Below, piece after piece: positions 1,391-53,520 of a DNA stretch of 64,000 nucleotides. The stretch spans positions 32,001 through 96,000 of the IMG/VR virus record IMGVR_UViG_3300050343_000285, one strand, 5' to 3'. Within the stretch, counting starts at the first letter, position 1. Every line of letters starts with the position of its first letter. The position numbers and the translations under genes were made by a program. The notes beneath the pieces are model-generated. The model searched no databases and was not told the DNA's origin. It saw nothing but the letters and a program-made list of their open reading frames with translations. Source of the DNA: a virus.

Positions 1391-1392
1391 TT

Positions 1393-3105: not shown

Positions 3106-3108
3106 AAA

Positions 3109-3570: not shown

Positions 3571-3591
3571 TTAAGAAGGAGATTTATAAAC

Positions 3592-4593
3592 ATGGCTAAT
3601 AAATTTGAACCATCCGCTGAGCTTACTGATCTTCTGATTAGATCAGGTTCGGCAGAAAAAGAGCAGTCTTTAGCTGCAAGTAAAGAGTTTGCAAAAGCTC
3701 TTGAGCTTCCATTGCGTCAAGCTATTCTTAGTGGAGATATTCTCGATAACATCTTTGAGCCAATTCAATTAGCTCCAGGTGCTACTCCAGAATTTCCATT
3801 AGATTTCTTGGCCCCTGGAACAGAGGCTGATTTTGTTGCGTATACTTTACCTAATCATGGTTATGTGCCAGAACGACATGTCGAAGGCGACTATGTCATG
3901 GTTCCAACCTATGATATTGGTGCAAGTATCGATTATCTTTTAAAGTATGCTCGTGACGCCCGTTGGGATGTTGTCGGTCGTGCTATGGAAGTTCTCGAAG
4001 CGCAGTTTACCAAGAAAATGAATGATGATGGATGGCACACCTTGCTTGCTGCTGGTGTTGACAGAAACATCGTTGTTTTTGATAGTGACGCTGATGCTGG
4101 TCAGTTTACTAAGAGACTTGTTTCTCTCATGAAAACTGTCATGCGTCGTAATGGTGGTGGCAACTCTGCTAGCAATAACAGAGGTATCCTCACCGATCTT
4201 TATGTTTCGCCAGAAGGTATGGAAGACATCAGAAACTGGGGCGTAGATCAAGTTGACGAAATTACTCGTCGTGAAATCTACACCGCTGCTGATGGCAATG
4301 TAAACCGTGTCTTTGGTGTTAACCTTCATGATGTTGATGAGCTTGGCGAAGGTCAAGAATATCAAGAGTTTTATGATAATGTTCTTTCTGGAACAATGGA
4401 TGCTGGCGACAGTGAAATTGTTGTTGGTCTCGATCTTCGTAAGAGAGACTCATTTATCATGCCGGTTCGTCAAGAAGTTCAGATTTTTGAAGACGATACA
4501 TTACATCGTCAGAAGAGAGCTGGTTTCTATGGATGGGCTGAGCAAGGGTTTGCTGTTCTAGATAATAGAAGAGTGCTTCTTGGTTCTCTCTAA
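3592..4593 (+). CDS. Major capsid protein (HK97 fold inferred)
   Basis: 333 aa, strong AGGAG SD, position after scaffold/decoration genes, followed by an intrinsic terminator; C-terminal GFYGWAEQGFAVLD strand pattern. Confidence 0.8.
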   Translation: MANKFEPSAELTDLLIRSGSAEKEQSLAASKEFAKALELPLRQAILSGDILDNIFEPIQLAPGATPEFPLDFLAPGTEADFVAYTLPNHGYVPERHVEGDYVMVPTYDIGASIDYLLKYARDARWDVVGRAMEVLEAQFTKKMNDDGWHTLLAAGVDRNIVVFDSDADAGQFTKRLVSLMKTVMRRNGGGNSASNNRGILTDLYVSPEGMEDIRNWGVDQVDEITRREIYTAADGNVNRVFGVNLHDVDELGEGQEYQEFYDNVLSGTMDAGDSEIVVGLDLRKRDSFIMPVRQEVQIFEDDTLHRQKRAGFYGWAEQGFAVLDNRRVLLGSL

Positions 4594-11600: not shown

Positions 11601-14600
11601 ATGGCAGCGGCATTCAATCTCACAGCACAAATTAATCTTAGAGGCCCTAGAAATACTAGAGCAATTGCTTCTCAAATGAGGAAACAATTATCTGGTGTTA
11701 AAGTTAAAGTAGATCTTGATTTAAAAGGAGCATCTGCTAAAAACGTAGCTAATATTAACAAACAGCTACAAGGTTTATCTAGAAATGCAGCATTAGCTCA
11801 TAAGAATGTAGCTAGACTAAATCAAAGCGTAGTTCAGTTAGGTGCAGGACTAAAAGGAATGGGTGCTGGCTCAGTTCAGTCTATTGCTAAGGTGCAGAAG
11901 CAAGTTAATAATGCTGGTAAATCTATAGATACTGCTACTTCACAGATACAAGAATTTGGTAAGCAATCAGGCTTGGCTATTAGAAGATTTGCTGCGTTTA
12001 GTGCTGTTACAGGTGTTGTGTATGGTTTAACCAATGCTATTAATAGTGCTTATAAAGAATTCGTACAATTTGATAGACAATTAATTAGATTAAGTCAAGT
12101 TACTGGTACTAGTGTTGCTGGGCTCCAAGGTATTACTAAAGAGATAACAAGTCTTTCTACTAACTTAGGGGTAGCTTCTACAGACTTAATGCAAATTTCA
12201 GTAACTTTAGCTCAGGCTGGTTTAAGTGCTCAGGAAGCTAAAACAGCATTAGAAGCTCTGGCTAAATCTTCACTAGCTCCTTCTTTTGATAATCTGAACG
12301 ATACTGTTGAGGGTAGTATCGCTTTAATGAAACAGTTTAGCATATCTTCTACGGACCTTGAGGCAGCTTTAGGTAGTGTTAATGCTGTTGCTGCTAGTTT
12401 TGCTGTTGAAGCTGGAGATATTATTAAAGCTATTCAGCGTACTGGTGGCGTGTTTGCTAGCGCTAGTAAAGGAGTAAGTACAGGTACTCAGGCTTTGAAT
12501 GAATTTGTTGCGCTTTTTACTAGTGTTAGATCAACTACTCGTGAAGGTGCAGAGACTATCGCTACTGGTCTGCGAACTATTTTCACTAGGATTCAGAGAG
12601 GTTCTACAATAGAATCTTTAAAAGAATTTGGTATTACGTTAACAGATTTAGAAGGTAAATTTGTAGGGCCGTTTGAAGCAGTTAAAAGATTAAGCCAAGG
12701 TCTTAGTGGTCTTGATCCTAGAGATTTAAGGTTTGGACAGATTGTTGAAGAGCTTGGTGGTTTCCGTCAGATTGGTAAAGTTATTCCTTTAATTCAACAG
12801 TTTGCTACTGCTCAAAAAGCTTTAGGCGTAGCTCAATCTGGGCAAGGCAGTTTAAGTAAGGCCGCTATACAAGCGCAAGCTTCATTAGCTGTGCAGTTTG
12901 AAAAAACTAGGCAATCTTTTGTGGGTTTAATTAGAGAGATTGGAGATAGTACAACATTTAGGACTATTGCTACGGTTAGTTTAACAACCGCTAATGCTTT
13001 TATTAGTCTTGCAGGTGCTTTGAAACCATTACTTCCTATGCTTACAGCTCTTACTGCTATTAAAGGAGCTTCTATCCTGAGTGAATTTGGTAGTGGCTTT
13101 CTTGGTGGAGTAGGTAAGTCTGGTGGCGGTGGAGGTGGAGGTGGTCTTGGAGGTCTTCTTGGTGGAGGTAAAGGGCCAAAGGGTTCTGGTGGTGGTAGAA
13201 AAGGTAGTCCTGCTAGCTTAAAAGCCAATACAGCTGCCTTAGCAGCAAATACATCTACTATGGCAGAGTTGATTGCTTCAATGCAAAATTTAAACTCTAT
13301 GATTGCTGGTATGTCGGGAGGATCTACTAAGGCTTTTGCTAGTGGTGGTTTAGTGCCTGGTAGTGGTAACAGAGATACTGTATCAGCTAAGCTGACTCCT
13401 GGTGAATATGTTATTCGCAAGAAAGCTGTAGAAAAAATAGGAGCTGATAAGTTAAGTAAATTAAATCGTGGAGGCAGGATTCAAAAGTTTGTTACAGGTG
13501 GTTCTGTAGAAGAATTAGCTGAGCAAAGAGGAGTAAGCGCAACAGATATTGTAGCTCAAGAGATACAGAATGCTAAATCGATTAAGAATGTTAAAGAGCT
13601 TGCGGGTATAGACAATAGAAGCAAATTTAGTAAAAGCCTAAATAATATATTAAGAAAAGGAGTTTATGACGATCCAAGTAATCCAGAAGCACTTGCTACA
13701 GCTATAGATGTGATCAATAAAGTTTTAGCTAAAAAAGCTGGAGATGCCGAAAAGCTAGAAGGAGAAAAGGCGGTTGCTCCATCATACGCTCTAGTAGGAT
13801 TACGAGGTAAGCCCGCAGACCACTTCATGGAAGCTGAAGATGGTACGATGGTTAATCTTGTAGGTCGCAGAGCCAAATTTGGAAGAAGTTATGATAAACA
13901 AATGAGAGAAGGTTTTGTAGGTACAGTTCAGGATGTTGCTGGGTCAATGGCTCAAAAAATTGGCGGGGGAACGAAAGTTAAAATACCAGATAAAAAAGGA
14001 TTGGCAAGAGCAGGTTTATACAATGCTATAGGAGCTTATCTTGAAGCAGCAGTAGCTTCTATTGGCGCTCCTTACGATAAAGATCAAAGTAATGATCCTT
14101 TAGACTTTGAAAAGGGACTAGGTCCTGCTGCTAGTATGTTTGGCGTGCCATCAGATATGCCTGCTGATACTACTAGAACAGTTTTCGGCAAAGGTAAAAG
14201 TCCTGCAAAATTCCTTGATCAAGTAAATAGATATAGAAAAAATAGAATGGCTACAGGAGGTTCTGTAGAAGATACAGTTCCCGCATTACTTACTCCGGGA
14301 GAATACGTCCTTAATAAAAAAGCTGCTCAAAAATTAGGCTCTCAAAAACTAGATAAGCTAAATAAAGCAGATAAAATTCAAGGCTTTAATAAGGGTGGTG
14401 CTGTCGGTTTTGTTCAAAGATTTGCTGCTGGAGGCGGCGTACAAGCTGATCAAGCTGCTTATGTTGCTAGAATGGCTAAGAAATTAGGAATGACTGTTGA
14501 AAAATATGAGAAAAGTATTAGAAACAGAATTCTTAATCAAGCTGAAAAACAAGCTACTAGTAAAACTGGAGCCCAAACAGATCTTCTAAACGTTCTTGTG

Positions 14601-17600
14601 AAAAATATTGAATCTATTGGCGATGCTGATGTAGAAAATCTGGTAAGAGGACAAGCTCAAGAATTAGTAGAGAAAATTTATGGTGGAGCAGATCAAATTG
14701 ATCCTGATGTTTTAAGCGATTCAATAGACGATCTTGTTGCTTCAATGAAGAGTGGATTATCTATAGAAGAAATTAAGGCTAGTTCAAGCCAATGGGCTGA
14801 AACATTAGATATGCAAATTAATGCATCTGGTGAAGTTGCTAAAGCTCAAGAAAATATGGCAAAGAAATTAGGTTTTCTTAGTTCTGGAATGAAAACTAAA
14901 GATATTGACATTAGAGCCAGACAATCGCTCAATGAAGGTAAGTTTGGATCTTTTGATAAAATGAATTTACGAAATGCTCAAACCAATATAGAGTCTGGAT
15001 TTGGTAGCATTTTAGATAACATCGGTCAGAAACTTAGTACTGCAAATATACCCGGTATGAATAAGCTTTCTAAAGCTTTTCCTGATGCAGCAAATAAGAT
15101 TACTTCTATTGGCGATAAAATGGGTGGCCTAACTGGTATTTTAGGATCAGGAGCAACTATATTATCTACTCAATTACCTAAGATGTTTGATAGCTTTGAC
15201 AAGTTGACAGGTTCTGTTTCAGATCATAGCGAGACTCTTGCTGGAGTTACTGGAGCTTTAAGTTCTGGTGGTAGTTTTGGTATGAGTGGAGCTATATTAG
15301 GACAACAAGCATTCGGCAGACGGGGCGCTGCTATTGGTGGAGTAGCTGGAATGGCTGGTGGTGCGATTAGTGGCTTTATTAAAGAGTCTACAGCTAGAGA
15401 GCTAGAGAATGCTATGAGGGGCGTAACAGCTGCGTCTAGTAATCTTGATAAAACATTAGGTCGTTTAGATATGGCTCAAACTATAGAAGAAAGACAAGAG
15501 CTTGTTCAACAACTTAATAGAGATTATGAAAATCTTAATCAAGCTTTAAATCAATCAGCACAAGAAATAGAAAAAAATAGAATTTGGAATGCTTTAAGTA
15601 GTGGTTTAGAAGGATTTATGTCATCGCTTACTACTGTTATAGGCTTCATGGCTGCGGCTAAGATAAGTGCTGCTGCATCTTCATTTATACCTAGAGGAAA
15701 AGCAAAAGGCGGCTCTATTGGTTTTAATACTGGAGGTATGGTTCCTGTTAAATTAGCTAGTGGAGAAGGAGTATTTACACCACCATTACCGACATCTATT
15801 GGTAATCTTAAAAAGATGAATCAAGCGGATAGAAACGGTTATAAACCAAATTTTGCTGGTGGCATGGGGATTGTTCCTGGTTCAGGTAGCGGGGAAGTTG
15901 ATAATTACGATACTATGTTGCCAGAAGGTAGTTATGTTATTCGTGCCAAGGCTATGAAAAGCATGCAGGCTGCAACAGGGGGTAGAATTGGTAGTAGTTC
16001 TGTAGGAGTTAAGGGCTATGCTAGTGGTGGAGGTGTTCAAGGATATTTCTTGGGTGGTTTGATAAGACCACTTATAAAGGTAGGCTTTAGAACTATCGGT
16101 CCTTATCTAACTAAAGCTTTAGTACAAGGTGTGAAAACTACAGGTCTCATTGCTGCGGTAAATCTTATACCGGCGGCTATACAAGGTGCTTTGGGTTTCC
16201 TCGATAATACAGCTACTGATCAGCAATTAGCAGCACAAGTAGCTAGTTTAGAACAACTGAGAAAACTTGTAGATATACAGACCAACTTTGTTGTTAAAGA
16301 TCAGAAATCTTCTCAAAGATTATTAAGCCAGATGGATCCTATTGAAAGAGCTAATCTTACTACTGAACAAAGACAGGCGATGTATGCTAGTCCTACATCA
16401 GCTAGTGGTGATTTTAATGAATTAAATATTTTAGGTTCTAGACAAGCTAGAGCTAAGCTAAGTGGTGCTGGTTTTGATGTAGGTCAAGGACAAGGCATTC
16501 AAGAATATTTAGATAGTTTAAATAGTAATGATAGGCAGGCAGCTGAAGAACTTGTTGTTGAAGCTAATCAAGAATTAGCAAAAAGAATTTATATAGAAGC
16601 TAGGCAAAGAGAGGGTATAGAACTATCTACAGCTAGAAAAGAATTTGAAAGTTCTGATCCTGAAACTCAAACAAAAGTTAAGAAACGTATTGATGAAGAG
16701 TTAGGTAGTCAAAATAGACGTATAGCTTTAGCTAGACGTATGATGGTTGTTAATAGACAATTACAAAAATTCACATTAAGTTTAACAGATGTTATGAATA
16801 GACTTGGTAGCACTATGCAAAGAGTCACATCTGAGATTGTTTCTAGCACAAATAGATTATCACAATTATCTGGTGAGTTTACTGGAGAAACTGTTGGTGC
16901 AGCTAATCCATCAGAAAAAATGGCTCAAACATTATCTAATATTACAGCATACTCTGCTCAGGAATTAGCTCGTGTGGTCGATGGTGTTAATAGTAGTTTA
17001 GGTAATACGAAAGAAACTAGACAGATGGGAGATCTTATTAAAGGTCTTCAAATTATACAAAAAGAATTGCCATTAATTTTAAGAGACACTGCTGAAGGTG
17101 GAGACTTAGACGCTGGTGCAGAAAGTAGTATTAGAGATAGATTAGATACTATGTTTGCGGGTGTTGATATTGGTAACAATATAAAGAAAAATCTGGAAGA
17201 TAGTATTATCAACTATATAACAGATTCTACAGGCAACAGACAGGGAATGAGTTATGAAGACTTAGCTAATAATATTGAAGGACTTAAAGAGTTAGATGCC
17301 GCAGCAGAAAAAGCTAGATCTACCTTTGAAGATTATGCTAATAAACAAATAGAAACAAATAGACTTTTAGGTGGTGTTTCCAATCAATTAGCTAGCCAAT
17401 TAGATAAATTAAAAGACAATGTTATTAAAGTTCGAGATATTCAGTTACAAAGCGCTTTACAACTAGCTGATAAATTTAATAAGACTATAAGTTTATCCGA
17501 TTTAAATTCTCCTTTTAATAATTCTGTAAAAGGACTTACAGGAGGTACAACAGACGCGGCTGAAATAGGTAGAATAATAGCAGAAGCAATTGAACAAAAA

Positions 17601-20399
17601 CGCATGTTGGAAGCTGATCCAGCTACACAAACCAGCGCCTTGGGCGCAGGTCAGATAGCTAAGTTGACTTCGAAGATTAATAGATATCAAAGAGCTTTAG
17701 GTCTCTTAGCAGATAGTACTGATAAAGCTTCTAACGCATTGAAAAAAATTGATGAGCAGCAAAGAATCTCTGCTGGTCGTAGAACTGGAGTAATGGATTT
17801 TCTGTCTAATATCAATAACCCAGAAGCTTTGCTTGGTATGAGAAGAGATCAGGTTTCCTATTCTAATGTAATGTCTGGAACAGGAACTATTAATGATATT
17901 GCTCAGGGTATTTCTCAATTAAGACTTGTTGAAAATACACAAACCCCAGAGGACTTCGCTAGAACTCAAGAAGCATTTTTTAATAATGCTATGGGCATAC
18001 TTGAATCTTCTGGTGGAAATCCTGAAGTCTTTAGGCAGTTCAAAGAAATGTTTGCTGCTGATTTTGGTCCACAAGGACAGAACCCAGCTATATCTCCTTT
18101 TGTAGATGCATTTAGGCAAGCTTCAGAGAAGCAAATAGAGGCAGCTAAGGTGCAATCTGGATTAATAACTAGCGGTGCTGAAATTGCCGGAGATGCTTTA
18201 CGCAAAGGGGCTGAGGACTTTACATCAAAGATGAAAGTAGCTACAGATGCTATAGTAGCTGAACTTAATGGGGTAGCTGATAGACTTGGTTTAGGACAGC
18301 CTAGTGGCAGTCAAACGTTTGCTAATGGAGGTGTAGTATATGCTTCTGCTGGTCAGATGATTAATTTCCAACCAAAAGGTACAGACACAGTACCAGCAAT
18401 GCTTACTCCTGGCGAATTTGTTGTTAATAGAGCATCAACTTCTAAAAACCTACCTTTACTTAAGTCTATAAATAGTGGAGGTTACAGTAGAGGAGGAAGT
18501 GTATCTTATTATGATCAAGGAGGCTATGTATCAACTAGTGGTAATAAATTTCAAGGGGCTCAAAATAAACTTGATAAAAATTTAGAAACAGATTTTCAAG
18601 AACTTATTAGTGGCATATTAAAGGAATCTAAACAAGAATTACCAATGCAGGATGCTGGTTCTTATCAGATTCAAAAGAATATGTTTAAACGTAATAGGAA
18701 ATTGACCAACAAAATGACTGGTATACAGTCTGGTATGGACTTTTTTAATAATTTAGATAGTGGTGATTCTAGAAAGATAAAAAAACTAGACGTATTCAAA
18801 ACTCCTTCACAAACAATTACTAATAAAGATTTATACAGAACACTTGCTGGAGATAACAGGCTGGTTTCTTCAATAAATCCATATTTAACATCAGGTAAAG
18901 AAAATTCTTGGTGGAGTTTCTTTGAAGGACAGGGAAAAAACAACGAAAAATATAAAGGTAATTTAGCAGACTCTAAAGCTACCATAGAAACTCTTGGACC
19001 TAAACTTGATCAGTATTCCGGTATTATGGGAGATAGAATATCTGAACTTCCTGAACTTAAGAAAGTAGCAGCTAAAGATAGATCGATTGCATCAAGAAGA
19101 AAAATTCCTGAACTTGAATCGTTAAAACAAAGAAAAGGACTTATTGATGGTCTTATTGATTTTAGGGCTTTTGGTCAAGGACTTGTAGATACTGATAGCA
19201 TACGACATCTTTTCGGTTTTGGCGACACTGCGCTTGGTGGATCCGGTGGAAGTAGCACTGGTAAATATAGTAATGATCTGACATCTTTAATAAAAACTGG
19301 TTTATTGCCTGAAGATATCTTAGACGAAGGCGCTAAAGAAGGTGTGAGAAAAGGTCTAAGAAATGCTGCCATAGGATTAGGTGCTGGGGCTGCGGTAGCA
19401 GCGGCTCCTTTTACTGGTGGTGCTAGCTTAGCTTCTCTTGGATTAATGTTGGGTGGCACTATGGGTGTTAGCATGGGTGCTATTAATATTGCAGATATGA
19501 TAGAAGAACAACAATTTCAAAAACTAAAAAATAGTGATCCTTTAACCTATGAAAAGATTAGAGCTTTAAAAGATAATGAAAACTTTAAATCTACAGCGAG
19601 CACGTACGAAGGTTTAATAGATATTGCGGATTTGGGTGTGTCTGCTGGTCCCGGTGTTGCTAAATTTTTGCGCAATAGAGGTAGCAGATTAATGAAGAGT
19701 GTCGTTAAACCTGGTGCTATAGGTATGGCGGATGATGCTGTTAGTCCTGGTAGTAAACAATTGCTAAAAGATATTACATCAGATAGTCCTTCTACTAAAA
19801 ATAGTCCTTCTACTAAAAAACCTCCTAAACTTAAAGGTGGCACAAATCCCGATACAATAATGCGAATGACAGATGATGTTCGCTCAATGCTTACTAAGAT
19901 TGAAGGTCAGAGAGGTAGTGAATTAGCTGCAAGTTTTTCTAAAGCTGGTTCAGATAATCTTCTCCAGAATGTTCGAAATTCTCTGGATATATTAGGAGTA
20001 AATCCTGAAGACTTTTATAAAGTTTTACCTAGAGAGATTTCAGTTTCTGATAACTTACCGGGTGCTCTAGGTTTCTTCCGATCTAATCAAGGAGCTTTTG
20101 GAGATATGGGAGATATAGGAATTAGAAGATCCGCTTATGCAAAAACTTTGTATCATGAAATGACTCATTCTATGATGGATCAGATAAAAAAGAAGAGACC
20201 GGAAGCTTGGACAAGATATCAAGACAAGGTGAAGAGTGTGTTTTCAGGAAAAGATCCTCATAAGCTTGGTGATGCTATTACCTCTTTGAGTAAAAATTAT
20301 CAACCTGCAGATATGATGTATGGAAGATATTATAAATTACTAAGATTGCAAAAATTTGGTCAAAAAACATGGCAAAGGAACGTACCAAAAAATTACTAA
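11601..20399 (+). CDS. Tape measure protein, N-terminal ORF (2932 aa); probably continues through +1 breaks to 24484
   Basis: TP901-type TMP core (FDRQLIRLSQVTGTS...QISVTLAQAG...TGLRTIFTRI), long helical/Gly-Ala-rich and hydrophobic segments, position after tube and chaperone genes. Confidence 0.85.
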   Translation: MAAAFNLTAQINLRGPRNTRAIASQMRKQLSGVKVKVDLDLKGASAKNVANINKQLQGLSRNAALAHKNVARLNQSVVQLGAGLKGMGAGSVQSIAKVQKQVNNAGKSIDTATSQIQEFGKQSGLAIRRFAAFSAVTGVVYGLTNAINSAYKEFVQFDRQLIRLSQVTGTSVAGLQGITKEITSLSTNLGVASTDLMQISVTLAQAGLSAQEAKTALEALAKSSLAPSFDNLNDTVEGSIALMKQFSISSTDLEAALGSVNAVAASFAVEAGDIIKAIQRTGGVFASASKGVSTGTQALNEFVALFTSVRSTTREGAETIATGLRTIFTRIQRGSTIESLKEFGITLTDLEGKFVGPFEAVKRLSQGLSGLDPRDLRFGQIVEELGGFRQIGKVIPLIQQFATAQKALGVAQSGQGSLSKAAIQAQASLAVQFEKTRQSFVGLIREIGDSTTFRTIATVSLTTANAFISLAGALKPLLPMLTALTAIKGASILSEFGSGFLGGVGKSGGGGGGGGLGGLLGGGKGPKGSGGGRKGSPASLKANTAALAANTSTMAELIASMQNLNSMIAGMSGGSTKAFASGGLVPGSGNRDTVSAKLTPGEYVIRKKAVEKIGADKLSKLNRGGRIQKFVTGGSVEELAEQRGVSATDIVAQEIQNAKSIKNVKELAGIDNRSKFSKSLNNILRKGVYDDPSNPEALATAIDVINKVLAKKAGDAEKLEGEKAVAPSYALVGLRGKPADHFMEAEDGTMVNLVGRRAKFGRSYDKQMREGFVGTVQDVAGSMAQKIGGGTKVKIPDKKGLARAGLYNAIGAYLEAAVASIGAPYDKDQSNDPLDFEKGLGPAASMFGVPSDMPADTTRTVFGKGKSPAKFLDQVNRYRKNRMATGGSVEDTVPALLTPGEYVLNKKAAQKLGSQKLDKLNKADKIQGFNKGGAVGFVQRFAAGGGVQADQAAYVARMAKKLGMTVEKYEKSIRNRILNQAEKQATSKTGAQTDLLNVLVKNIESIGDADVENLVRGQAQELVEKIYGGADQIDPDVLSDSIDDLVASMKSGLSIEEIKASSSQWAETLDMQINASGEVAKAQENMAKKLGFLSSGMKTKDIDIRARQSLNEGKFGSFDKMNLRNAQTNIESGFGSILDNIGQKLSTANIPGMNKLSKAFPDAANKITSIGDKMGGLTGILGSGATILSTQLPKMFDSFDKLTGSVSDHSETLAGVTGALSSGGSFGMSGAILGQQAFGRRGAAIGGVAGMAGGAISGFIKESTARELENAMRGVTAASSNLDKTLGRLDMAQTIEERQELVQQLNRDYENLNQALNQSAQEIEKNRIWNALSSGLEGFMSSLTTVIGFMAAAKISAAASSFIPRGKAKGGSIGFNTGGMVPVKLASGEGVFTPPLPTSIGNLKKMNQADRNGYKPNFAGGMGIVPGSGSGEVDNYDTMLPEGSYVIRAKAMKSMQAATGGRIGSSSVGVKGYASGGGVQGYFLGGLIRPLIKVGFRTIGPYLTKALVQGVKTTGLIAAVNLIPAAIQGALGFLDNTATDQQLAAQVASLEQLRKLVDIQTNFVVKDQKSSQRLLSQMDPIERANLTTEQRQAMYASPTSASGDFNELNILGSRQARAKLSGAGFDVGQGQGIQEYLDSLNSNDRQAAEELVVEANQELAKRIYIEARQREGIELSTARKEFESSDPETQTKVKKRIDEELGSQNRRIALARRMMVVNRQLQKFTLSLTDVMNRLGSTMQRVTSEIVSSTNRLSQLSGEFTGETVGAANPSEKMAQTLSNITAYSAQELARVVDGVNSSLGNTKETRQMGDLIKGLQIIQKELPLILRDTAEGGDLDAGAESSIRDRLDTMFAGVDIGNNIKKNLEDSIINYITDSTGNRQGMSYEDLANNIEGLKELDAAAEKARSTFEDYANKQIETNRLLGGVSNQLASQLDKLKDNVIKVRDIQLQSALQLADKFNKTISLSDLNSPFNNSVKGLTGGTTDAAEIGRIIAEAIEQKRMLEADPATQTSALGAGQIAKLTSKINRYQRALGLLADSTDKASNALKKIDEQQRISAGRRTGVMDFLSNINNPEALLGMRRDQVSYSNVMSGTGTINDIAQGISQLRLVENTQTPEDFARTQEAFFNNAMGILESSGGNPEVFRQFKEMFAADFGPQGQNPAISPFVDAFRQASEKQIEAAKVQSGLITSGAEIAGDALRKGAEDFTSKMKVATDAIVAELNGVADRLGLGQPSGSQTFANGGVVYASAGQMINFQPKGTDTVPAMLTPGEFVVNRASTSKNLPLLKSINSGGYSRGGSVSYYDQGGYVSTSGNKFQGAQNKLDKNLETDFQELISGILKESKQELPMQDAGSYQIQKNMFKRNRKLTNKMTGIQSGMDFFNNLDSGDSRKIKKLDVFKTPSQTITNKDLYRTLAGDNRLVSSINPYLTSGKENSWWSFFEGQGKNNEKYKGNLADSKATIETLGPKLDQYSGIMGDRISELPELKKVAAKDRSIASRRKIPELESLKQRKGLIDGLIDFRAFGQGLVDTDSIRHLFGFGDTALGGSGGSSTGKYSNDLTSLIKTGLLPEDILDEGAKEGVRKGLRNAAIGLGAGAAVAAAPFTGGASLASLGLMLGGTMGVSMGAINIADMIEEQQFQKLKNSDPLTYEKIRALKDNENFKSTASTYEGLIDIADLGVSAGPGVAKFLRNRGSRLMKSVVKPGAIGMADDAVSPGSKQLLKDITSDSPSTKNSPSTKKPPKLKGGTNPDTIMRMTDDVRSMLTKIEGQRGSELAASFSKAGSDNLLQNVRNSLDILGVNPEDFYKVLPREISVSDNLPGALGFFRSNQGAFGDMGDIGIRRSAYAKTLYHEMTHSMMDQIKKKRPEAWTRYQDKVKSVFSGKDPHKLGDAITSLSKNYQPADMMYGRYYKLLRLQKFGQKTWQRNVPKNY
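13335..13502 (+). repeat. TMP repeat module 1
   Basis: FASGGLVPGSGNRDTVSAKLTPGEYVIRKKAV...LNRGGRIQKFVTGG. Confidence 0.85.
14247..14441 (+). repeat. TMP repeat module 2
   Basis: MATGGSVEDTVPALLTPGEYVLNKKAA...LNKADKIQGFNKGG...FAAGGG. Confidence 0.85.
15699..16058 (+). repeat. TMP repeat modules 3a/3b (degenerate tandem pair)
   Basis: FNTGGMVPVKLASGEGVF...MN and FAGGMGIVPGSGSGEVDNYDTMLPEGSYVIRAKAM...YASGGG...YFLGG. Confidence 0.7.
18318..18530 (+). repeat. TMP repeat module 4
   Basis: FANGG...QPKGTDTVPAMLTPGEFVVNRASTSKNLPLLKSINSGGYSRGG...YDQGG. Confidence 0.85.
19785..19820 (+). repeat. 18-nt tandem duplication (SPSTKN SPSTKK)
   Basis: AGTCCTTCTACTAAAAAT / AGTCCTTCTACTAAAAAA. Confidence 0.85.
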
Positions 20400-22773
20400 G
20401 AAATATCCATCGCTAAGGACATTCTTAGATAATCCAGGTAATTATAAGCAGCCTTATGATGGTGCTACAGATGCCATAATGAATGGAGCATTAACAGATT
20501 TAGGGGCTAGCCCAGCACAATTAACCTGGGATGCTAGTTCTGGCATGGAAGAATTTTTAACAAAATTGGTTGATAGCGCTAATGATATGAGTAACAAGCA
20601 AAGAAAAGGCTTAGGAGGTATATTAGATAACCTGTTGATGGGTCCACCTCCACCACCAATATCTAGGAACAATAGCGCATTAAAAAGTTTAGATACTCCT
20701 AATAAATTAACAGTTATGAAACAGTCATGGAGTAGATTTACCAAGCCTATCAGAAGATTTATGGGTGATGACCCCGATATCTTTTATGGATCAGATTCAC
20801 TTCCTGTTATGGTAGAAAATTCATTCCCCTCGACTGTAGCAGGAGGGGTATTGGCAGGGGCGATAGCGGCTGCTGAAGACCTTTATTCAAATCCGACAGC
20901 TGGTAGTGGTTCTGCTAGTGGTAGTTCTTCTAGTGGTAGTTCTGCTAGTGGTAGTTCTTCTAGTGGTGGTTCTGCTAGTGGTGGTTCTTCTGGTGCAAGC
21001 ACTTCTGTTCCACCTACTAGTAGTAGTGCTGGAGGTAGCGCTGGAAGTAGTGGCGCACAAGAAGCTATAGAACAACACTTGGAAGAGACTAGAAGAGTTT
21101 TTGCAACGACTAACGCTTCTCTTTTAGATGCTACTGGAGGAGAAGGTATAGGTGAGGATAATAGTAGATATAGTTTTGGACAAGCTGTTCAAGGTCGTAA
21201 TAAAGGTCTTGTAGATCCTCTTGATGCTGTCAATTATTATGCTAGAAGAATTCGTATTCCTGAATTTGAGCTTGGTGGTACTAGTCAAAAGGGTGGTGTT
21301 GCTGCTGGTGAGCTATTAACTGAAGATCAAAGACAAGTATATGAGAGTCAATATTATGATGTTTTAAATAAAATTAAATCATTGTATAAATCTAGCGGTA
21401 TGTCTCCTGATCCAGCAAAATTATCAGATTTTACCAATGAAAGAGATTTACTTAAAGAAGTTTTAGATAGTGATTATAGGGCTCAATTTAATCTTGGCCA
21501 ACCTACTAAAGCGCCTAAATTCAATTTAACATCTCCTACACAACCTAATAGTAGTCCTCCTAGCAATGCTGAAAAAATGATGCTAGAGGATGATGTACCA
21601 AAAGATAATAAAAGATTATTAGAGTTGATGTCACATATAAAAACTGGAACAACTACCAAAACTAATGAAGAGATTTTAAAACCTTTTGGCTCAAGATTTA
21701 CCAGTGTTGGTCAATCTTTAAACGAAGCGTTAAAACCAGGCTCAAAGATAGATTATCAAAAACAAGTTTTATCAGATTTTAATAAACTTAAAGCAGATTA
21801 TTTAAAAGCTTATGCTGCTCCACAAGATGTTACAGCTACCAATATTGGTTTTTCAAGTAGCACAAGTGGGCCTTCATCAACTCAAAAAGCTATAGCAGAG
21901 CTTAATCTTTTAAAAAAGGATAAATCAGCAAAGACTCAGGATCCGCAATTTATGTCTTCTCCAGGTGGTTTACCAATTACACCAGCAGAGTTAAATAAGG
22001 TGAACGATGATGTAAATAGTTTAGTAGCAAAATATCAAGGTCAATATGGACAACAGAGCCCAGCAGACTTAAAAGATATTCTGCAAAAAGCTACTGAAAG
22101 AAGAGATCTTCTTAGAATTCAACACGGAAACTGGGATAAGTATTATAAAGAAAAAAGCGGATATGATAAGAAAAGATTAGAGTTTGAGTTTTTAGAAAAA
22201 AGATGGAATTTCAGAGATGAGCTTAAGGCAGATCCTGAAGGTAGAATGTCCGGAGGTGGACAATTTGGTATGGGTTCTTTAGAATATGCATTATTTAACC
22301 ACCCAAGCCCTATCGGTAAAGTAAATCCTTTTGAGGTATTCAAAAAAGATCCTGAAAGTACACTTTATGGTAGACCTGCTACAGATCTTGATTCTGTCAT
22401 GGGCTCAGTCAATAAAACTACTAATAAGATTATTGAAAATCTAATTAAAAATTATGGACAAGCTTTAGGTATTAATCCAGGTTTACCTATACCGAAAAAA
22501 TCCAGTGATATGGATACTTGGCTTAGTAATATTAATCCCGACGCTGTATCATTAATGGATAGTAGTGTGCCAAATCCAGGATGGATGTTGGATGTTTTAA
22601 AAAATCAGTACACCCCAGGTAGGGTTTCAAACGGTGAGACGCTTGCAAGTAAATTTGGATTATGGAGTGTTACTGGTGCTAAAAATGGTTGGAATAGTAA
22701 CTTTGGTAAAGATTATGAAGCAGAATTCCAAAAAAGAGTTAGAGAAAAATTGACAGATTGTATACGAACTTAA
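20356..22773 (+). CDS. TMP middle ORF (cargo region); likely the same protein as 11601-20399
   Basis: Overlaps the upstream ORF in the +1 frame at CAAAAATTTGG; removing one A gives LRLQNLVKKHGK. Carries the EEF motif that may complete the upstream HEMTH peptidase. Confidence 0.55.
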   Translation: MVKKHGKGTYQKITKKYPSLRTFLDNPGNYKQPYDGATDAIMNGALTDLGASPAQLTWDASSGMEEFLTKLVDSANDMSNKQRKGLGGILDNLLMGPPPPPISRNNSALKSLDTPNKLTVMKQSWSRFTKPIRRFMGDDPDIFYGSDSLPVMVENSFPSTVAGGVLAGAIAAAEDLYSNPTAGSGSASGSSSSGSSASGSSSSGGSASGGSSGASTSVPPTSSSAGGSAGSSGAQEAIEQHLEETRRVFATTNASLLDATGGEGIGEDNSRYSFGQAVQGRNKGLVDPLDAVNYYARRIRIPEFELGGTSQKGGVAAGELLTEDQRQVYESQYYDVLNKIKSLYKSSGMSPDPAKLSDFTNERDLLKEVLDSDYRAQFNLGQPTKAPKFNLTSPTQPNSSPPSNAEKMMLEDDVPKDNKRLLELMSHIKTGTTTKTNEEILKPFGSRFTSVGQSLNEALKPGSKIDYQKQVLSDFNKLKADYLKAYAAPQDVTATNIGFSSSTSGPSSTQKAIAELNLLKKDKSAKTQDPQFMSSPGGLPITPAELNKVNDDVNSLVAKYQGQYGQQSPADLKDILQKATERRDLLRIQHGNWDKYYKEKSGYDKKRLEFEFLEKRWNFRDELKADPEGRMSGGGQFGMGSLEYALFNHPSPIGKVNPFEVFKKDPESTLYGRPATDLDSVMGSVNKTTNKIIENLIKNYGQALGINPGLPIPKKSSDMDTWLSNINPDAVSLMDSSVPNPGWMLDVLKNQYTPGRVSNGETLASKFGLWSVTGAKNGWNSNFGKDYEAEFQKRVREKLTDCIRT
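20902..20991 (+). repeat. 15-nt tandem repeat (~6 units) encoding a Ser/Gly linker
   Basis: Units AGTGGT[A/G]GTTCT[G/T]CT at 20917, 20932, 20947, 20962, 20977 plus a degenerate unit at 20902. Confidence 0.9.
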
Positions 22774-22858
22774 AGGTAAAAGAGCAGACACGCTTGATGG
22801 AGGTAAAGTATCTACTCAGGAAAGTATCATAGACTCTTTAGCTACATATAGTGGTTTA

Positions 22859-24484
22859 ATGAATCCTGCGGTTTATAGAGCTGGTAATCCTGCGTTTGGT
22901 CCTTTGATTATACCTAAAAATAATGCTAATATACCAGACGATAAAAAGGTTGCAAGATATAGAAAAGATATTGGAAGAGCATACCAAGCCTACACTAAAT
23001 CTAATTTTGATATGACATTTGGCGGCCGTACTAGTGTAGATGGATATCAAGCAATTGCTGATAGATTAGGTATTCCTTTAGGTGGAGAAGCTCTTAGAGA
23101 AACAGTTTTAACAGATAGAAATGCTTTAAAAAGAATTAAAGAAGGTAGAACTTTTGCTGTAGGCAGAGCAGGTAAAGGTACGGAAGGAGCTAAACAAAGT
23201 ACTGGTATCGCCAATCTTTTTGCTGCTGGTCGTAGTGCCGAGGTACCAGAGGGTGATCGTGGCAGATTCACAGATTTAGACGGTAATGAAGAAAAAAGTA
23301 AAACCATATTAGGATTACTAGCTAGTGGATTGAATTTTAGTAATAGATTAGGTATTACTAATAGACAATCTAGACTAGATTATGTTAAAGATTTTAAATT
23401 TGCTGATCTTTTACAAGATCCTATATACGCTAAATATGAAAAAGATCATTTAGATCCTAGTATCTCAGCCCTCAAACCTGTGTATAAAGTTTGGGATTCA
23501 TTAAAAAATTATTTTGTTAAAGATGGTCTAACTACCGCTAGAATTATTGATGAAAATGCTTCTGGAGTTGTTAGTCGAACTCAAAAAAGTAAAAATGATA
23601 GATTTCTTATTGGTGGCAAACCGATAGGGGCAGAGAATTTCTTAGATAATTATGCAAATGCTTTGAAAGATGGTAAAGATCCTTATAGTTTAATTCTTGA
23701 GGGTGCTAGTATTCTCAAAGATGCTACAAAGGACGGAGGCGCATTTAGCTCAATAGTAGGTAAACCAACTCCTTTTAATAATAAAGAATTTATCTTAGCT
23801 AAAAAAGAAATACAAATGCAAGATCCGCTTAATAGAGCAAAAGGCGGTTCAATACCAAATTATTTCAGTGGTGGTGGCTCTACACTTGTAAACTATCAAG
23901 CCAAAGGGACGGATACTGTGCCCGCGATGCTTACTCCGGGAGAGTTTGTAATTAATAGGGCCGCTACCCAAAAACATCTTCCATTATTAAAATCTATAAA
24001 TAATGGATCAATGCCTTCTAGCATAAGCGGTACTACATACGCCAGATCCGGCGGTGTTATACAAGCTAGGAACTATTTTGATGGAGGTCTTGGTAAGATG
24101 GGAAATCTTGCTTCAGGAGGTCTTGGCTTAGATTTATCGAGTGCTGAAGGTGTATTTAATACATTTATTAGAAACTTTAGTAGTGAAACTAGTGCTTTTG
24201 GTGGGCTTATTAATAACTTAGCTAGAGTCTTCCCTGCTCTTAGCGGACCTGTTAATAATTTTGGCAATCATGTTGATAAACTAGTTAATGCCCTTAATGG
24301 TCTTAAAAATATAGAAATAAAAGGACCAAATATTCCAGATACAATTAATGTTAATAGTGAGACTATTAGGGTCGAATTAATAGCACCACAAGATAGTAAC
24401 TATAAATTAAGTGATGATGATAGAAGACAGATTACTCAGTCTTTAGAAACTAGACTAAAAGAATTGACTACATTAGGTAGATAA
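22859..24484 (+). CDS. TMP C-terminal ORF; likely the same protein
   Basis: Frame is open upstream to 22754 and overlaps the previous ORF end; no strong SD at 22859; contains a DTVPAMLTPGE module nearly identical to the one at 18318. Confidence 0.55.
   Translation: MNPAVYRAGNPAFGPLIIPKNNANIPDDKKVARYRKDIGRAYQAYTKSNFDMTFGGRTSVDGYQAIADRLGIPLGGEALRETVLTDRNALKRIKEGRTFAVGRAGKGTEGAKQSTGIANLFAAGRSAEVPEGDRGRFTDLDGNEEKSKTILGLLASGLNFSNRLGITNRQSRLDYVKDFKFADLLQDPIYAKYEKDHLDPSISALKPVYKVWDSLKNYFVKDGLTTARIIDENASGVVSRTQKSKNDRFLIGGKPIGAENFLDNYANALKDGKDPYSLILEGASILKDATKDGGAFSSIVGKPTPFNNKEFILAKKEIQMQDPLNRAKGGSIPNYFSGGGSTLVNYQAKGTDTVPAMLTPGEFVINRAATQKHLPLLKSINNGSMPSSISGTTYARSGGVIQARNYFDGGLGKMGNLASGGLGLDLSSAEGVFNTFIRNFSSETSAFGGLINNLARVFPALSGPVNNFGNHVDKLVNALNGLKNIEIKGPNIPDTINVNSETIRVELIAPQDSNYKLSDDDRRQITQSLETRLKELTTLGR
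23834..24088 (+). repeat. TMP repeat module 5
   Basis: RAKGG..YFSGGG...QAKGTDTVPAMLTPGEFVINRAATQKHLPLLKSINNG...YFDGG. Confidence 0.85.
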
Positions 24485-26135: not shown

Positions 26136-28076
26136 ATGAAATCTTATAATATAGACATACAATCTCCTGAATGCTTATCTAATTCTAATGGTCGTATTAC
26201 CATAAGGGATTTGACAGAGAATCAATCCCTATCTTTTACATGGAAGAACTTGCCTATTGACTCTAAAATAGAAAACAAAGGATCTATAGTTTCAAATTTA
26301 GAATGTGGTACTTATGATATAGATATATATGATTTAGAAAGCAAAAAAAATATTAATGAAAAGATAACTATAGAATGCAAGGATGTTCTGTCTTTAGATT
26401 TACTGCAAATAGAAGGGTTGCATTGTTATGAAGATGTTGGTCAAATGAATATTGCATGGTCTGGAGGCCAAGCTCCATATACACTATCTATAGGCTCGGA
26501 CAACCATACTACTTATAATAATGTATTTTCTTATAATATATTAGCTAATCATACCTATTCTCTAACTATCAAAGATGCTAATGGGTGTTTAATTAATAGA
26601 AATAATATTACTAAAAATATTGATTTGCTAAACATTGATGTATATTGGGAACCTATTAGCCATTATGGAGGCTCTTCTGCTCATGTCAAATGCGAAATAT
26701 CTGGGGGTAAACCTCCATATCAAATAGCATGGTTTATAGATGGTCAAGATAAGCCTATTATTGTCAATAAGTCAAAAATTACCGATACATTAGATTCTAA
26801 TCATTATCTTATTACTGTTGAAGATAGTAATAAATGCAAAACAACAAAAGAGTTTTTTATATCAGAACCTTCTAATATAATGGTTAATTTAAAAACAAGT
26901 GCTGACTATCATAGTAATTCTTATTTTCCAGAAGAGGATGCTCAAAAGATCTATAATCTTCTGCTCTTTCCTGTAAAAAAAGATAAAATCAAAGATTTTC
27001 ATAAAAAACTTAAAAGTAATAAGCTAGTATTAAATCATAAAAATCAAAAAATAACACAGAATATTGTTTTAGATTTTGATATAGTAACTATAAATAATAT
27101 AGAATATATGTATTTTTATATTAGTCCTGGATTATTAGCTATTCAACAGGCCACATCTAAACTTTCTATAGGTGATGAAGAAATTACCTTACATCACAAT
27201 CCTGAACTTAATAATCAGAATAAACTATTAATGGGTTCTATTATTTTAGATCAGAATTATGAGTATCTATTTCATGAAAACGATGTGGTTAACTTATCTA
27301 GTAATAATAATGATAAAATTTTAAAAACAAAAATTAAATATGCATATACTATGAGTGGTTTATATCTATCTCCTAATATATCAACTATTATTAATTTTTT
27401 ACCTAATAATTCAGATCAAGTTTTGAATTTACTGAATCAAAAAAATGATTTAAAAATACAATGCTTAACTACTAAATCTAATAACAAATTAGGCGAAATA
27501 TCTTTATATGTGAATGGTGGACATACCGATTCTTTACAAGTGGAATTAGTAGATAGCCATCATAATGCGTCATACCATCATATAAAAAATCATTATGTAA
27601 ATATAAGCAATTTATCTTATGGTGATTACAAAATTAAAGTTTTTGATAAATTTAATACTGCAACAGAATATAATAGGACAATAATAGACGACCTACATTA
27701 CCCTGTTAAAATTATGCAGTCTTTTCAAGAAGAACAGGCTCATGCTCAGCTAGAAATATCGAATAAATATAATATTTCTCATACCCTTTTAAATAAATAT
27801 GACTCAACTCCTAGTAAATTATTATTTACATCTCCAGAATTCGAAAATGGGGTATTAATAAATATATCTCCATCTGAAGCTTATTTTGAGATTGTTGATG
27901 CGGACGGAAATAAGGTAGATGGTTGTGGTTATAGCGTTGTGGATTTAGATTATGGAAAATATACTATAACAGCTTTTCATGATGGTTATAAGACACAGAC
28001 TAAAGATTTTTTTGTTAATAGTTCTAAGGATTTAGTAACAGTTTTATTAGAGAAGGAAGATTATGGCTTCAGCTAA
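26136..28076 (+). CDS. SprB-repeat (Ig-like) protein with PEGA-like C-terminus
   Basis: WSGGQAPY...TIKDANGC and ISGGKPPY...TVEDSNKC match the SprB repeat pattern; C-terminal YGKYTITAFHDGYKTQT resembles PEGA. Confidence 0.55.
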   Translation: MKSYNIDIQSPECLSNSNGRITIRDLTENQSLSFTWKNLPIDSKIENKGSIVSNLECGTYDIDIYDLESKKNINEKITIECKDVLSLDLLQIEGLHCYEDVGQMNIAWSGGQAPYTLSIGSDNHTTYNNVFSYNILANHTYSLTIKDANGCLINRNNITKNIDLLNIDVYWEPISHYGGSSAHVKCEISGGKPPYQIAWFIDGQDKPIIVNKSKITDTLDSNHYLITVEDSNKCKTTKEFFISEPSNIMVNLKTSADYHSNSYFPEEDAQKIYNLLLFPVKKDKIKDFHKKLKSNKLVLNHKNQKITQNIVLDFDIVTINNIEYMYFYISPGLLAIQQATSKLSIGDEEITLHHNPELNNQNKLLMGSIILDQNYEYLFHENDVVNLSSNNNDKILKTKIKYAYTMSGLYLSPNISTIINFLPNNSDQVLNLLNQKNDLKIQCLTTKSNNKLGEISLYVNGGHTDSLQVELVDSHHNASYHHIKNHYVNISNLSYGDYKIKVFDKFNTATEYNRTIIDDLHYPVKIMQSFQEEQAHAQLEISNKYNISHTLLNKYDSTPSKLLFTSPEFENGVLINISPSEAYFEIVDADGNKVDGCGYSVVDLDYGKYTITAFHDGYKTQTKDFFVNSSKDLVTVLLEKEDYGFS

Positions 28077-29011: not shown

Positions 29012-32000
29012 ATGGCTTGTAATGTAAAAATGTTTTTTGGAGAAAGATTAACAGGTAATGGTTTTGAGGCTTACCTATCAGAACCAGAGAGTGTATTTAT
29101 CGCAGATTTTGATTGTACCATGATATCTACCGCTCTTGGTATGGGCTTTACGGAGTTTGAATTAACTGAAAAAGAACTATTATCTACAGCTACTTTTCAA
29201 ACATGGTGCATGTATATTTCTGAGACAAATAATAATAATCTCTATGGGCCACAGGTTTTTGATGCTTTAGGTTTAGATTTGGCCGAACTTAGAGAGATCA
29301 CTGGTAAATTTTTTCAAGATATTATAGATAATAAAAATCCCACCTCTATCAATGCACATATTAATCAATTGGTTAAAGATGATGTTGCAGTTACAATGCC
29401 AAAATTAGAACAGGCGTTCAAGTGGATTAAAAATGTTCATGATAACTATTACGGTAAAACATATCTAATACAAATAGGGGATGCTAATAGTGGGGTTTGC
29501 ATTAAAGATAAATTCGGGAATGCTCCTGCTTTCGACTTAAAAGCAGAGCCTGGAGGACTATATTATACTAGCGATTCGCCTTCTACAGCTGGGGCTTGGC
29601 CAAACCCAAATGTAAATAATATATTAGGACTACAGATTGGTCAAGAAACTCTTTTATTTCACGGTTCTGATAATAGAGTTGGTTCATTTTGTAGATTTGA
29701 CGAAAAAGAAAATATAATAAAGTCGGGATTTGCAAATCTAAACTGGAGTATAGATCTTTCTAGTATTGATGATGGATCATTTGTTCAGAAGAATGATCAA
29801 CTTTTTTTAAGTTGTTCTATAGATGAATCTATTTATCAGATAGATGGTGATCAGTATGTTAAAGTTGAAGTTAATGGTCCCCCAAAACTTAAATTACAGG
29901 CTGATGGAGAATTATGTGAAGTTAATTTAATGAGTCAGGGTGCTGTAGCATTAATGGCATTATTTGGAGATCAACACCCTGAATTATCTACAGCTTTAGG
30001 AGATACTTTTTGTGATGATCCTGATGACACTCAAGATGGTGCCCCAACTAATAGAAGTGCTTTTAATATTCTAAAAAGTAATAGACCGGCTGTTGTTCCT
30101 AGTCATTTTATATTACCTATGAAAAGCAATTTGTTTGTATACGGACCATGGAGTTATGTATCAAATCCTGTAGGTGGAACTATGGTAGATAATAATCAGG
30201 AGTTGTGCCCATGGAAATTTAGCGATGGATTTGATGATGGTTATGATAGAATGAATCAGTATGGTGCTCTTATTGCTCAAGATGGCCCAAGGGGTTTACA
30301 AAAACAAGAATCTGGCTCTATCACAGTACCTTCTTTACCTTCTTATAATCTTGGTTTTATGGTAGGTACTAATGCAGCTACATTAACAGACATTAATATT
30401 AATATAGGGGAAAGTGGTTATACAACTACTTATAATTTTCAAACATACACACCTAAGTTTGGAGAGCCCGGAAGAGCTTTAGCTGATTTATGGTCTAAGA
30501 GCTATCAATCAATGTCTTACATTAATAAGTTTTTCAAAGATCAGGCTATAGATTTACAAAAGTTAATAAATTCTACAGACCAGGAACTGTCTAAAAAAAG
30601 ATTTTTTGATATTCCTAAAGTTAATCAGGATGGCATTAGTCAAGAAGATGGTGGAGATAATACTCCGGGTAGTGGCAGAAGTCCTGGATTATTACTTATT
30701 GGTTCGTTTTTTATGAGAGATAAAGCAACCAATGCTAGTGGAGGAACTGATTGTTCTGACGGCACAGCAGGGTTAGCTAGAGGGTGTCATGCTTGTGGGC
30801 CAACTCCACCACCGCCTCCTCCATTACCACCCCCATCAAATGCTTCTACTGGTAACATTCTACAGAACAGACCAAAAACAGAACTAGAGAAGGGCTACAC
30901 TTGGGAACATATTAGAAAAAATACATTTCATCGTGTAGCGATATCAACACTTGATTTAATTTTTACGCCCATCAGTACTAATCAAGAAGGAGATGATAGG
31001 GCGCATCTACCTAGATTGACTATGTATCAAGATTATGAGTGTTCGCAGATGGAATTTAGTGATAAGCCAGTAGATACTCAGCCAGGTAGACCTCCATCGT
31101 CTAGACCAAGGAGTGAAATACCTCCTTTCCTTTTAGATTCTGCTTTAACATATGACCTACCAGTGAACCAACAGTATTTAAACGCTGTAACTTCTGAAAC
31201 TATGTTAAATGATTGGGGAGATAGAATTAACGGCAGTACTAAAGGTTTTATTTGTCACTTAATTAGTTATGGTAATGATTTTGAAGATTTTAAATATAGT
31301 AATCAGGATAGTGATGAGGAAGCCAGACAAGCAGAAGAGAATTTTAGGTATAACATATTGAAAGGCCCATTAAGTTTGCAAGGTTGGGGATATGACACTT
31401 CCGGAAAACCTATACCTAATGCTGTCGATTCTGCAGAAGACACAGAGAAAGGCATGTTTAGAAGAAAAGGACTCAAAGACCAATTCTTAAAAGATTGGCT
31501 AGAAAACCCCAAAACGTGGCCTGCTGGACCCATTGATTTACGATGGGATAGAGAAAGAGGTGTTTGGGTAGCTCCCCCAGCTAATAAAATAGTAGTGGCT
31601 AGATTACTAGGTAATTTACAGAAATATGGTACTGTTGAAGCTGAATTAATTAATCCTACTGGTGGAGAGGTAGCTTTCTATGAATATTATGATATATGGG
31701 ATGCTGAAGGTAGAAATATTAAACAGTCTATTAATAAAGCTAAGATAAAAATATATGATTATTTAGGAATAGAGCTTTGTAAATGTGATACAGTGTATGC
31801 TTACTATGATGATAATAGATATATTGTTCTAGAAAGTAGTAGAGCTTATCAAGACCCTAACGAAGCTTGCTGTCCTACTACCACACTTGCGACAGAACCT
31901 GTTTCAGTTGCAACACCCACTCCTACATCATGTTGGTGTAACCTTGAATGTTTACAAACATTAAAAAATTATAAAGAAGGTAAACATCAAGCACTAGTTC

Positions 32001-32104: not shown

Positions 32105-32692
32105 ATGGAAACTTTCTTTTATCAAAATAAGGAATATTTTTTTCTTCATATACCTAAAACTGGGGGCAGTATGTGGAGGCATATGTTTGCTGATGTTATA
32201 CCCGTAACAAAGAAGAAGCACGAATTTTTACAAGAAAAACTGAACGCTTATACCTTTACTATAATTAGAAATCCTTTAGATAGATTGGTTAGCGCCTTCT
32301 TTTATTTAAAAGTAGGAGGAAAAAACAAATATGACAATCAAGCTTGTATAAAATATCATTTGCGCAATATTTCTTTTAATGAATTTGTAGAGGCTTTATA
32401 TTTAGATACAGAGCATTATTCTTACATTCATTTTATACCTATGGTAAATAGGATTGGTGATATAAAGTTTTTTGATCGTATATGCTTATATGATAATTTA
32501 GAAAAAGAAACTAAAGAAATGTATAAAATATTTCATAATAAAGAATTAGAAGGAAATATACCAATAATACTTAAAAGTAATCATAATAGATTTAATCTGT
32601 ATTATGATAAAAAAACAAGGAAAATGACAGAGTCTATATATGAAGAAGATATATGTTTATATGAAACTATAAAAAAAAGACAACAGAATTAA
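32105..32692 (+). CDS. Carbohydrate sulfotransferase (Sulfotransfer_2-like)
   Basis: 5'-PSB motif FLHIPKTGGS and 3'-PB motif IRNPLDRLVSAF of PAPS-dependent sulfotransferases. Confidence 0.8.
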   Translation: METFFYQNKEYFFLHIPKTGGSMWRHMFADVIPVTKKKHEFLQEKLNAYTFTIIRNPLDRLVSAFFYLKVGGKNKYDNQACIKYHLRNISFNEFVEALYLDTEHYSYIHFIPMVNRIGDIKFFDRICLYDNLEKETKEMYKIFHNKELEGNIPIILKSNHNRFNLYYDKKTRKMTESIYEEDICLYETIKKRQQN

Positions 32693-44083: not shown

Positions 44084-44086
44084 TAA

Positions 44087-53496: not shown

Positions 53497-53520
53497 AATG
53501 TATAACCTTTCAGGGTAAAG

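Follow-up and report, generated by a model that had tools for sequence, protein, structure and literature searches.

A giant tape measure protein of an uncultured phage combines six copies of a conserved module with two variable slots

We analyzed a 64,000-nucleotide stretch of viral DNA (positions 32,001 to 96,000 of IMG/VR record IMGVR_UViG_3300050343_000285; hereafter the window), in which positions 11601-24484 had been interpreted from the letters alone as a giant, modular tail tape measure protein (TMP). The region consists of three open reading frames (ORFs) on the plus strand, each in the next frame along, and all features of the TMP given below lie on that strand. ORF1 (11601-20399; 2,932 amino acids (aa)) carries a TP901-type core, the first five modules (m1-m5) and the first part of a variable slot (slot 2); ORF2 (20344-22773; 809 codons stop to stop, with a possible TTG start at 20356) is collinear with relatives from about aa 223; ORF3 (22754-24484; 576 codons stop to stop, with a possible ATG start at 22859) encodes the C-terminal part. 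The core domain at 12021-13019 scores above the curated cut-offs, with TIGR01760 (tape_meas_TP901) matching aa 141-473 at 72 bits (cut-off 28.8) and PF10145 matching aa 180-374 at 79 bits (33.2). A search with the C-terminal ORF found three IMG/VR relatives; in two of these, L009 (genome G001) and L010 (genome G002), the entire protein lies in a single ORF, of 4,356 and 4,207 aa, respectively. The core and the unbroken ORFs of the relatives bear out the proposal of one giant protein after repair of two +1 breaks: the three ORFs are parts of one TMP gene, about 4,290 codons in length. Five membrane-like hydrophobic segments, as expected of TMPs, are present (12966-13022, 15324-15380, 15633-15689, 16146-16202 and 19395-19451; Kyte-Doolittle, 19-aa window, mean of at least 1.4). 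Under the rule of about 1.5 Å of tail per TMP residue, 4,290 aa would correspond to a tail of about 640 nm if the protein were fully helical. The TMP belongs to an uncultured phage of about 195 kb, and the homologues include TARA Oceans sequences, suggestive of a marine source. Among cultured phages, megablast found no near-identical DNA, and protein matches were limited to the TMP core at 22-27% identity.

A module of about 65 aa with the pattern GG..DTVPAMLTPGEFV..L..N..[FY]xxGG occurs six times along the protein, in four strong and two degenerate copies. First searches with a regular expression and a four-sequence hidden Markov model (HMM) detected the four strong copies and one intermediate one; a later profile built from 794 module instances scores all six, at coordinates agreeing with those of the sequence-only reading. 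Two of the strong copies, m1 (13326-13526; ORF1 aa 576-642; 88 bits; FASGG..RDTVSAKLTPGEYVI..LN..FVTGG) and m2 (14238-14438; ORF1 aa 880-944; 78 bits), are of a short type A. The other two, m5 (18309-18548; ORF1 aa 2237-2316; 88 bits; FANGG..PKGTDTVPAMLTPGEFVVN..LPLLKSIN..YSRGG) and m6 (23831-24091; aa 360-445 of ORF3 counted stop to stop; 78 bits), are of a type B with an extra ..N[FY]xPKG.. loop and an upstream extension of about 70 aa. Because m5 and m6 share this extension, the type-B unit is about 160 aa rather than 75; positions 18099-18548 and 23639-24100 are 39% identical over 162 aa. The degenerate copies are m3 (15693-15839; ORF1 aa 1365-1413; 16 bits, independent E-value (iE) 2e-6; FNTGGMVPVKLASGEGVF..), which is kept in both relatives, and m4 (15852-16040; ORF1 aa 1418-1480; 26 bits, iE 2e-9; ..VDNYDTMLPEGSYVI..YASGG). 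The same six-copy layout, including this degenerate middle pair, is found in L009 and L010.

The core of the module is highly conserved. Across the 794 instances the conserved positions are, in order, G 94% and G 95%, then D 93%, T 81%, V 86%, P 94%, A 93%, M 72%, L 96%, T 81%, P 89%, G 99%, E 95%, F 87% and V 94%, and further on L 92%, N 94%, G 90% and G 83%. Core conservation is thus 81-99% (M 72%), against 20-40% identity over the rest of the proteins. The bracketing motif [FY]xxGG occurs 15 times in the TMP against 2.8 ± 1.6 times in 500 shuffles (maximum 9), a five-fold enrichment. No Pfam or NCBIfam family matches the module even at E≤10, and PHROG 35029, with function unassigned, is its only PHROG match. 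By eye, T-V-P-A-M-L-T-P-G-E-F-V is spaced like the signal-peptidase/LexA hairpin S-M-x-P-T-L-x-x-G-D-F-I; this likeness to S24/S26 peptidases was dropped, as no profile backs it, the module has no conserved lysine (K in 44% and R in 29% at column 36) and the lambda copy lacks the Thr.

Searched against 1.84 billion cluster representatives, the profile matched 25,506 proteins at E≤1e-3; at E≤1e-30, a level beyond the reach of a single copy, 1,322 remained, and these carry at least two copies. The best 150 matches range from 2,281 to 7,872 aa and have 3-10 copies each, with a correlation of r = 0.71 between length and copy number. The window TMP fits the layout of this family: m1 begins at aa 576 and m6 stops 130 aa short of the C-terminus, while the medians of the best 150 are aa 519 for the first module and 131.5 aa from the C-terminus for the end of the last, and the N-terminal signature FNLTAxINLxGP of the window TMP is shared by 80 of the 150. 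With six copies it is one of the giant multi-joint TMPs, taken as TMPs longer than 2,000 aa with at least three gpH-type modules. In a one-sequence tblastn search of 50,697 cultured-phage records, the module was found in 104, and among the matches listed all lay under annotated TMPs, at one or two places per record. Many-copy TMPs thus constitute a large uncultured family without being routine in characterized phages. The sequence-only reading had described the motif as usually single-copy near TMP C-termini, which is true of phage lambda gpH, where residues 732-789 (FATGG..GEFVF..L..GYATGG) match the profile once (28 bits, E 1e-10), and is close to the one or two copies of cultured phages.

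In a three-way alignment with L009 and L010, evaluated by an identity profile and BLAST, most of the length of the window TMP is collinear with L009 at 50-98% identity, two regions excepted. Variable slot 1 (13527-13775) lies directly after m1 and is 18-44% identical to the relatives, with about 315 extra aa in L009. Variable slot 2 (18549-21009) lies directly after m5, extends for about 840 aa to a Ser/Gly-rich linker and has no BLAST match to L009 or L010, which have about 380 aa in common in this slot and then diverge again. The inter-module segments had been described as mutually unrelated, and self-BLAST found them so, with the sole exception of the extension of about 70 aa upstream of m5 and m6. 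The idea that the modules separate interchangeable cargo stood in part: the modules are kept in the relatives and the slots after m1 and m5 vary, but most inter-module segments form a collinear backbone that is conserved as well, at 50-90% identity in the relatives. The suggestion that the segments are effectors found no support, since none matches a known effector family; at E≤0.001, Pfam gave nothing beyond PF10145 in the segments of the window TMP or of 13 other giants.

Where internal homology ends relative to the modules was counted in the 150 giant TMPs, using internal homology blocks of at least 250 aa and scoring an end as lying at a module if it fell within ±25 aa. The C-terminal ends of the blocks lay at a module in 69% of cases against 16% expected, whereas N-terminal ends did so in 15%, which equals chance. 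Because the C-terminal ends coincide with modules and the N-terminal ends do not, inserts begin just after the modules, which we hereafter call joints; the proposal that they act as recombination joints is thereby supported statistically.

Two parts of slot 2 recur in other giants. Cassette A (18597-19700), which includes the hydrophobic Gly/Ala-rich stretch at 19395-19451, is found in four giant TMPs (P0018, P0020, P0079 and P0089) at positions from 1149 to 4201. The HExxH cassette (19920-20643, with HEMTH at 20154-20168) is split by the first frame break, its second half lying in the next frame; it occurs in 15 of the best 150 giants with the motif at positions from 113 to 4548, and in these giants a downstream GKEEF is conserved along with HExxH and [FY]AxGG usually follows about 175 aa after the motif. 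Both cassettes change position among the giant TMPs. No Pfam peptidase family recognizes the HExxH cassette, a profile search of the PDB had no match better than E 0.3, and the cassette has no close relatives in IMG/VR. Its fold, predicted by AlphaFold2 (AF2) on an intact homologue with a 4-row alignment, was unusable (mean predicted local distance difference test (pLDDT) 39), and the ESM Atlas gave a lead only, to a cluster with LPD23 on 18% of its members.

The slots of the relatives hold other sequence. The insert of about 315 aa after the first joint of L009 (L009:9410-11077, minus strand; G001 TMP aa 689-1244) carries a Walker-A stretch, GPAGSGKT, bracketed by ASGG..FAGGG and FASGG..FDDGG, and has only weak AAA_30/AAA_33 matches (E 0.002-0.02); a DGDS..GEGYDAYE stretch before the insert looks nuclease-like by eye alone. 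Pieces homologous to this insert are present in the giants P0125, P0045, P0133, P0151 and P0058. In L010, the slot after the fifth joint (L010:7163-9358; G002 TMP aa 2349-3080) contains an HPD stretch, ..FRKLQKLLHPDMM.., followed by KPKPGQSS-type proline/lysine repeats. The HPD stretch resembles a J domain by eye; this candidate was rejected, as Pfam gives no DnaJ match.

The C-terminal ORF was modelled by AF2 with a 27-row alignment. A domain just before m6 (23231-23833; aa ~150-325) folds confidently (pLDDT 80-94) into helices and a five-strand sheet, for which Foldseek found nothing at E≤0.001 and VIA-align wide only generic helical bundles (Z≤7.3). The m6 region (aa 333-411) has a pLDDT of 35-57 with one predicted helix (aa 367-381), so that prediction yielded a confident fold for the domain but not for the module. 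On its own the module is predicted to be disordered, and the part of lambda gpHC that matches it (~690-817) is unresolved by cryo-EM in virions (PMC12617516). The view that the segments are not helical in the manner of TMPs is not established: the composition of the TMP is helix-friendly, and the one segment whose fold was predicted is mostly helices with a small sheet.

Among known systems, lambda gpH, which is processed to gpH* and gpHC, resembles the window TMP in having the module near its C-terminus after a hydrophobic and glycine-rich stretch. It differs in being 853 aa long with a single copy and without insert slots, in missing the D-T-V-P residues of the module core, in having a TIGR01541 core rather than a TP901-type one, and in its established cleavage nearby. 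Two copies (964-1034 and 1412-1457) are present in gp16 of mycobacteriophage Douge (PDB 8ZDO), and Gordonia phage TMPs have two module places per record; in these proteins, however, the two copies lie within at most 1,699 aa and no variable slots are described, and in the Douge structure only residues 1658-1699 are seen, the modules not being resolved (PMC13033339). Thermus phage P23-45 gp96, a 5,002-aa TMP fused to the virion RNA polymerase, is likewise a giant with a working enzyme, a metallopeptidase and membrane segments, and is thought to deliver the enzyme through the tail (PMC10770324). Its cargo, unlike the inserts here, sits at the N-terminus and has a known function; virions contain the protein at full length, and its description mentions no repeated joints. 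The polyvalent proteins are also very large, virion-associated and composed of unrelated domains strung together (Iyer et al. 2017; PMC5512222), but that paper mentions tape measures 0 times and describes no repeated joint, and their domains are recognizable by Pfam, whereas the window TMP gives PF10145 alone.

In the reading that we favor, and hold to be reasonably probable, the single TMP gene encodes a conserved backbone ending in partner-binding joints, and inserts are gained and lost just downstream of them. The TP901-type core is followed by conserved backbone segments, each ending in a joint of about 65 aa. The joint probably binds a conserved partner inside the tail, which could be other TMP chains, the tube lumen or an assembly chaperone; given its predicted disorder when alone, it would fold only together with this partner. 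Repetition of the joint in long rulers may keep the chain in register. The strong conservation of the joint would also let it serve as a homologous crossover point, with cassettes gained or lost just downstream. Ejection brings TMPs into the host before the DNA, so whatever they contain arrives first; the inserts would travel with the TMP into the host envelope. We did not find a sheath gene in the genome, which fits a non-contractile tail. A large uncultured family uses one conserved joint to part a fixed ruler from exchangeable inserts, which suggests that long-tailed phages have a general means of varying the content of their deliveries. The same joint occurs once in lambda gpH, which makes its role accessible to routine genetics and mass spectrometry in that phage.

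Several points weigh against this reading. We only infer the partner-binding role of the joint, and the low pLDDT of the module may stem from the shallow 27-row alignment. The breakpoint test counts pairs that are not independent, and a conserved module tends to extend alignments up to itself; the left/right asymmetry is the informative part of the test and the sole argument against such an extension bias. Beyond a weak tube match (E 0.02), no known tail family was recognized among the neighboring genes, so that the tail context rests on gene order and on the TMP itself. Finally, the cleavage of lambda gpH near its module agrees equally well with a different reading, in which the TMP is a polyprotein.

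According to that reading, which we regard as possible but rather unlikely, each joint would be a maturation site: the TMP would be cut at or beside the xxGG motifs, in the tail or after ejection, to release the inter-module segments as separate effectors. The protease responsible may be the HExxH domain within the TMP, in line with the suggestion of Iyer et al. that the polyvalent proteins, injected phage proteins with several domains, process themselves by means of a zincin-like HExxH metallopeptidase embedded in them (PMC5512222). Lambda gpH loses a C-terminal piece of about 14 kDa by a cut in its glycine-rich region, which places the unmapped site near module 732-789, and both the site and the protease that convert gpH to gpH* are unknown (PMC12617516). 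This cleavage, which takes place beside the same joint, has lacked a site and an enzyme for 50 years. The TMP of phage T5, pb2, is also cut, after R1127 with AEGG directly following, between a hydrophobic stretch and a C-terminal enzyme motif; however, pb2 does not match the module profile (score -3.8) and was rejected as a module carrier. The five-fold enrichment of [FY]xxGG, its bracketing of the HExxH cassette in other giants and the conservation of HExxH together with a downstream GKEEF in 15 giant TMPs would all suit processing, whereas the full-length state in virions of P23-45 gp96, which carries an enzyme domain, argues against it. So does the HExxH domain itself: it has no Pfam peptidase match, and its presence in only about 15 of the top 150 giants means that it cannot be a general protease. 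The gpK-like peptidases JAB (PF14464) and NlpC/P60 (PF00877), sought as candidates for a GG-specific protease, were not found in the 194,787-bp record by a search at E≤1 to which control genomes respond, and most segments are a backbone conserved in order rather than independent effectors. A wider version, which would also explain the conversion of gpH to gpH*, holds that the gpH-type joint is a self-contained maturation signal and that every joint of a giant TMP is a cut site, the tail-borne polyprotein yielding ruler pieces and released effectors, among them a zincin-like enzyme; we consider it doubtful, somewhat more so than cleavage of the window TMP. That the modules are inert linkers or recombination scars without a function of their own would agree with their predicted disorder and with their coincidence with homology breakpoints, but is very improbable, because an element kept from lambda to these phages with a core constrained to the degree described above is expected to have a function.

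The distribution of the gene over three frames could itself have been taken as real, the TMP being truly split into three genes or a decaying pseudogene of a defective phage. Frame break 1 (20344-20399) consists of one extra base within a frame overlap that holds A5, A6 and A6 runs. It lies in sequence absent from L009 and L010 and interrupts the HExxH domain that is intact in other giant TMPs: these read ..YGRSYK.. and, about 70 residues on, ..FKPINP..GKEEFLTTLV.., while in the window YGRYYK stands in frame 1, and YKQPYDG..SGMEEFLTKLV follows in frame 2 at a distance of 68 codons plus one base. At frame break 2 (22759-22771), L009 is continuous (..RKRLQDISKQKGKEAE..) and the window reads REKLTD in one frame and LKGKRAD in the next; 13 nucleotides (nt) stand against four L009 codons, indicating one extra base in the window. 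When 126 long ORFs of the complete relative G002 were compared with the whole 194,787-bp record, the 34.5k aligned residues showed about 24 changes of frame relative to the intact G002 ORFs, affecting at least 14 genes; several of the changes are in genes 95-99% identical to their intact counterparts. At about one break per 4.3 kb, about three are expected in a 12.9-kb gene, and therefore both +1 breaks are indels introduced by an error-ridden assembly; the three-gene split is an artefact, and gene calls throughout the record are likewise unreliable. A genuine split could appeal to the absence of a homopolymer at break 2 and to the possible starts of ORF2 and ORF3, but it is highly unlikely, given that break 1 runs through a conserved domain, that the homology of ORF3 to the relatives begins upstream of its ATG, that the TMP is unbroken in those relatives and that so many other genes are broken similarly. 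Programmed +1 ribosomal frameshifting, giving nested products of 2,932, about 3,740 and about 4,290 aa, is still harder to accept and we give it hardly any weight: both shifts are indeed +1, with frame overlaps of 56 and 20 nt, but the sites are not conserved, L009 and L010 reading through in one frame, break 2 has no RF2-type CUU-stop slippery context, and frame breaks are spread throughout the genome.

Frame-changed regions include 42195-44086 and 52772-55437 of the window (minus strand) and, in coordinates of the whole record (G000), 2355-3319, 29114-31139, 136910-139030, 148651-149201, 157974-161483, 174092-175454 and 191026-193875. A natural gene split at a joint was also looked for in other giants; the sole candidate, P0113, is not a real split, being the piece after a run of N that interrupts the TMP on an ENA scaffold (L012:2821-3000).

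In the relatives with a single TMP ORF, the genes downstream of it are conserved. Two genes after the window TMP, positions 26136-28076 (+) encode a 646-aa protein with weak Ig-like (Ig_3, E 2e-5), Hoc-like (PHROG, E 2e-4) and prealbumin-like matches, a possible decorated component of the tail or of a fibre. The rightward tail block ends, just before the strand switch, with a gene at 32105-32692 (+) that encodes a sulfotransferase (PF03567, E 2e-11).

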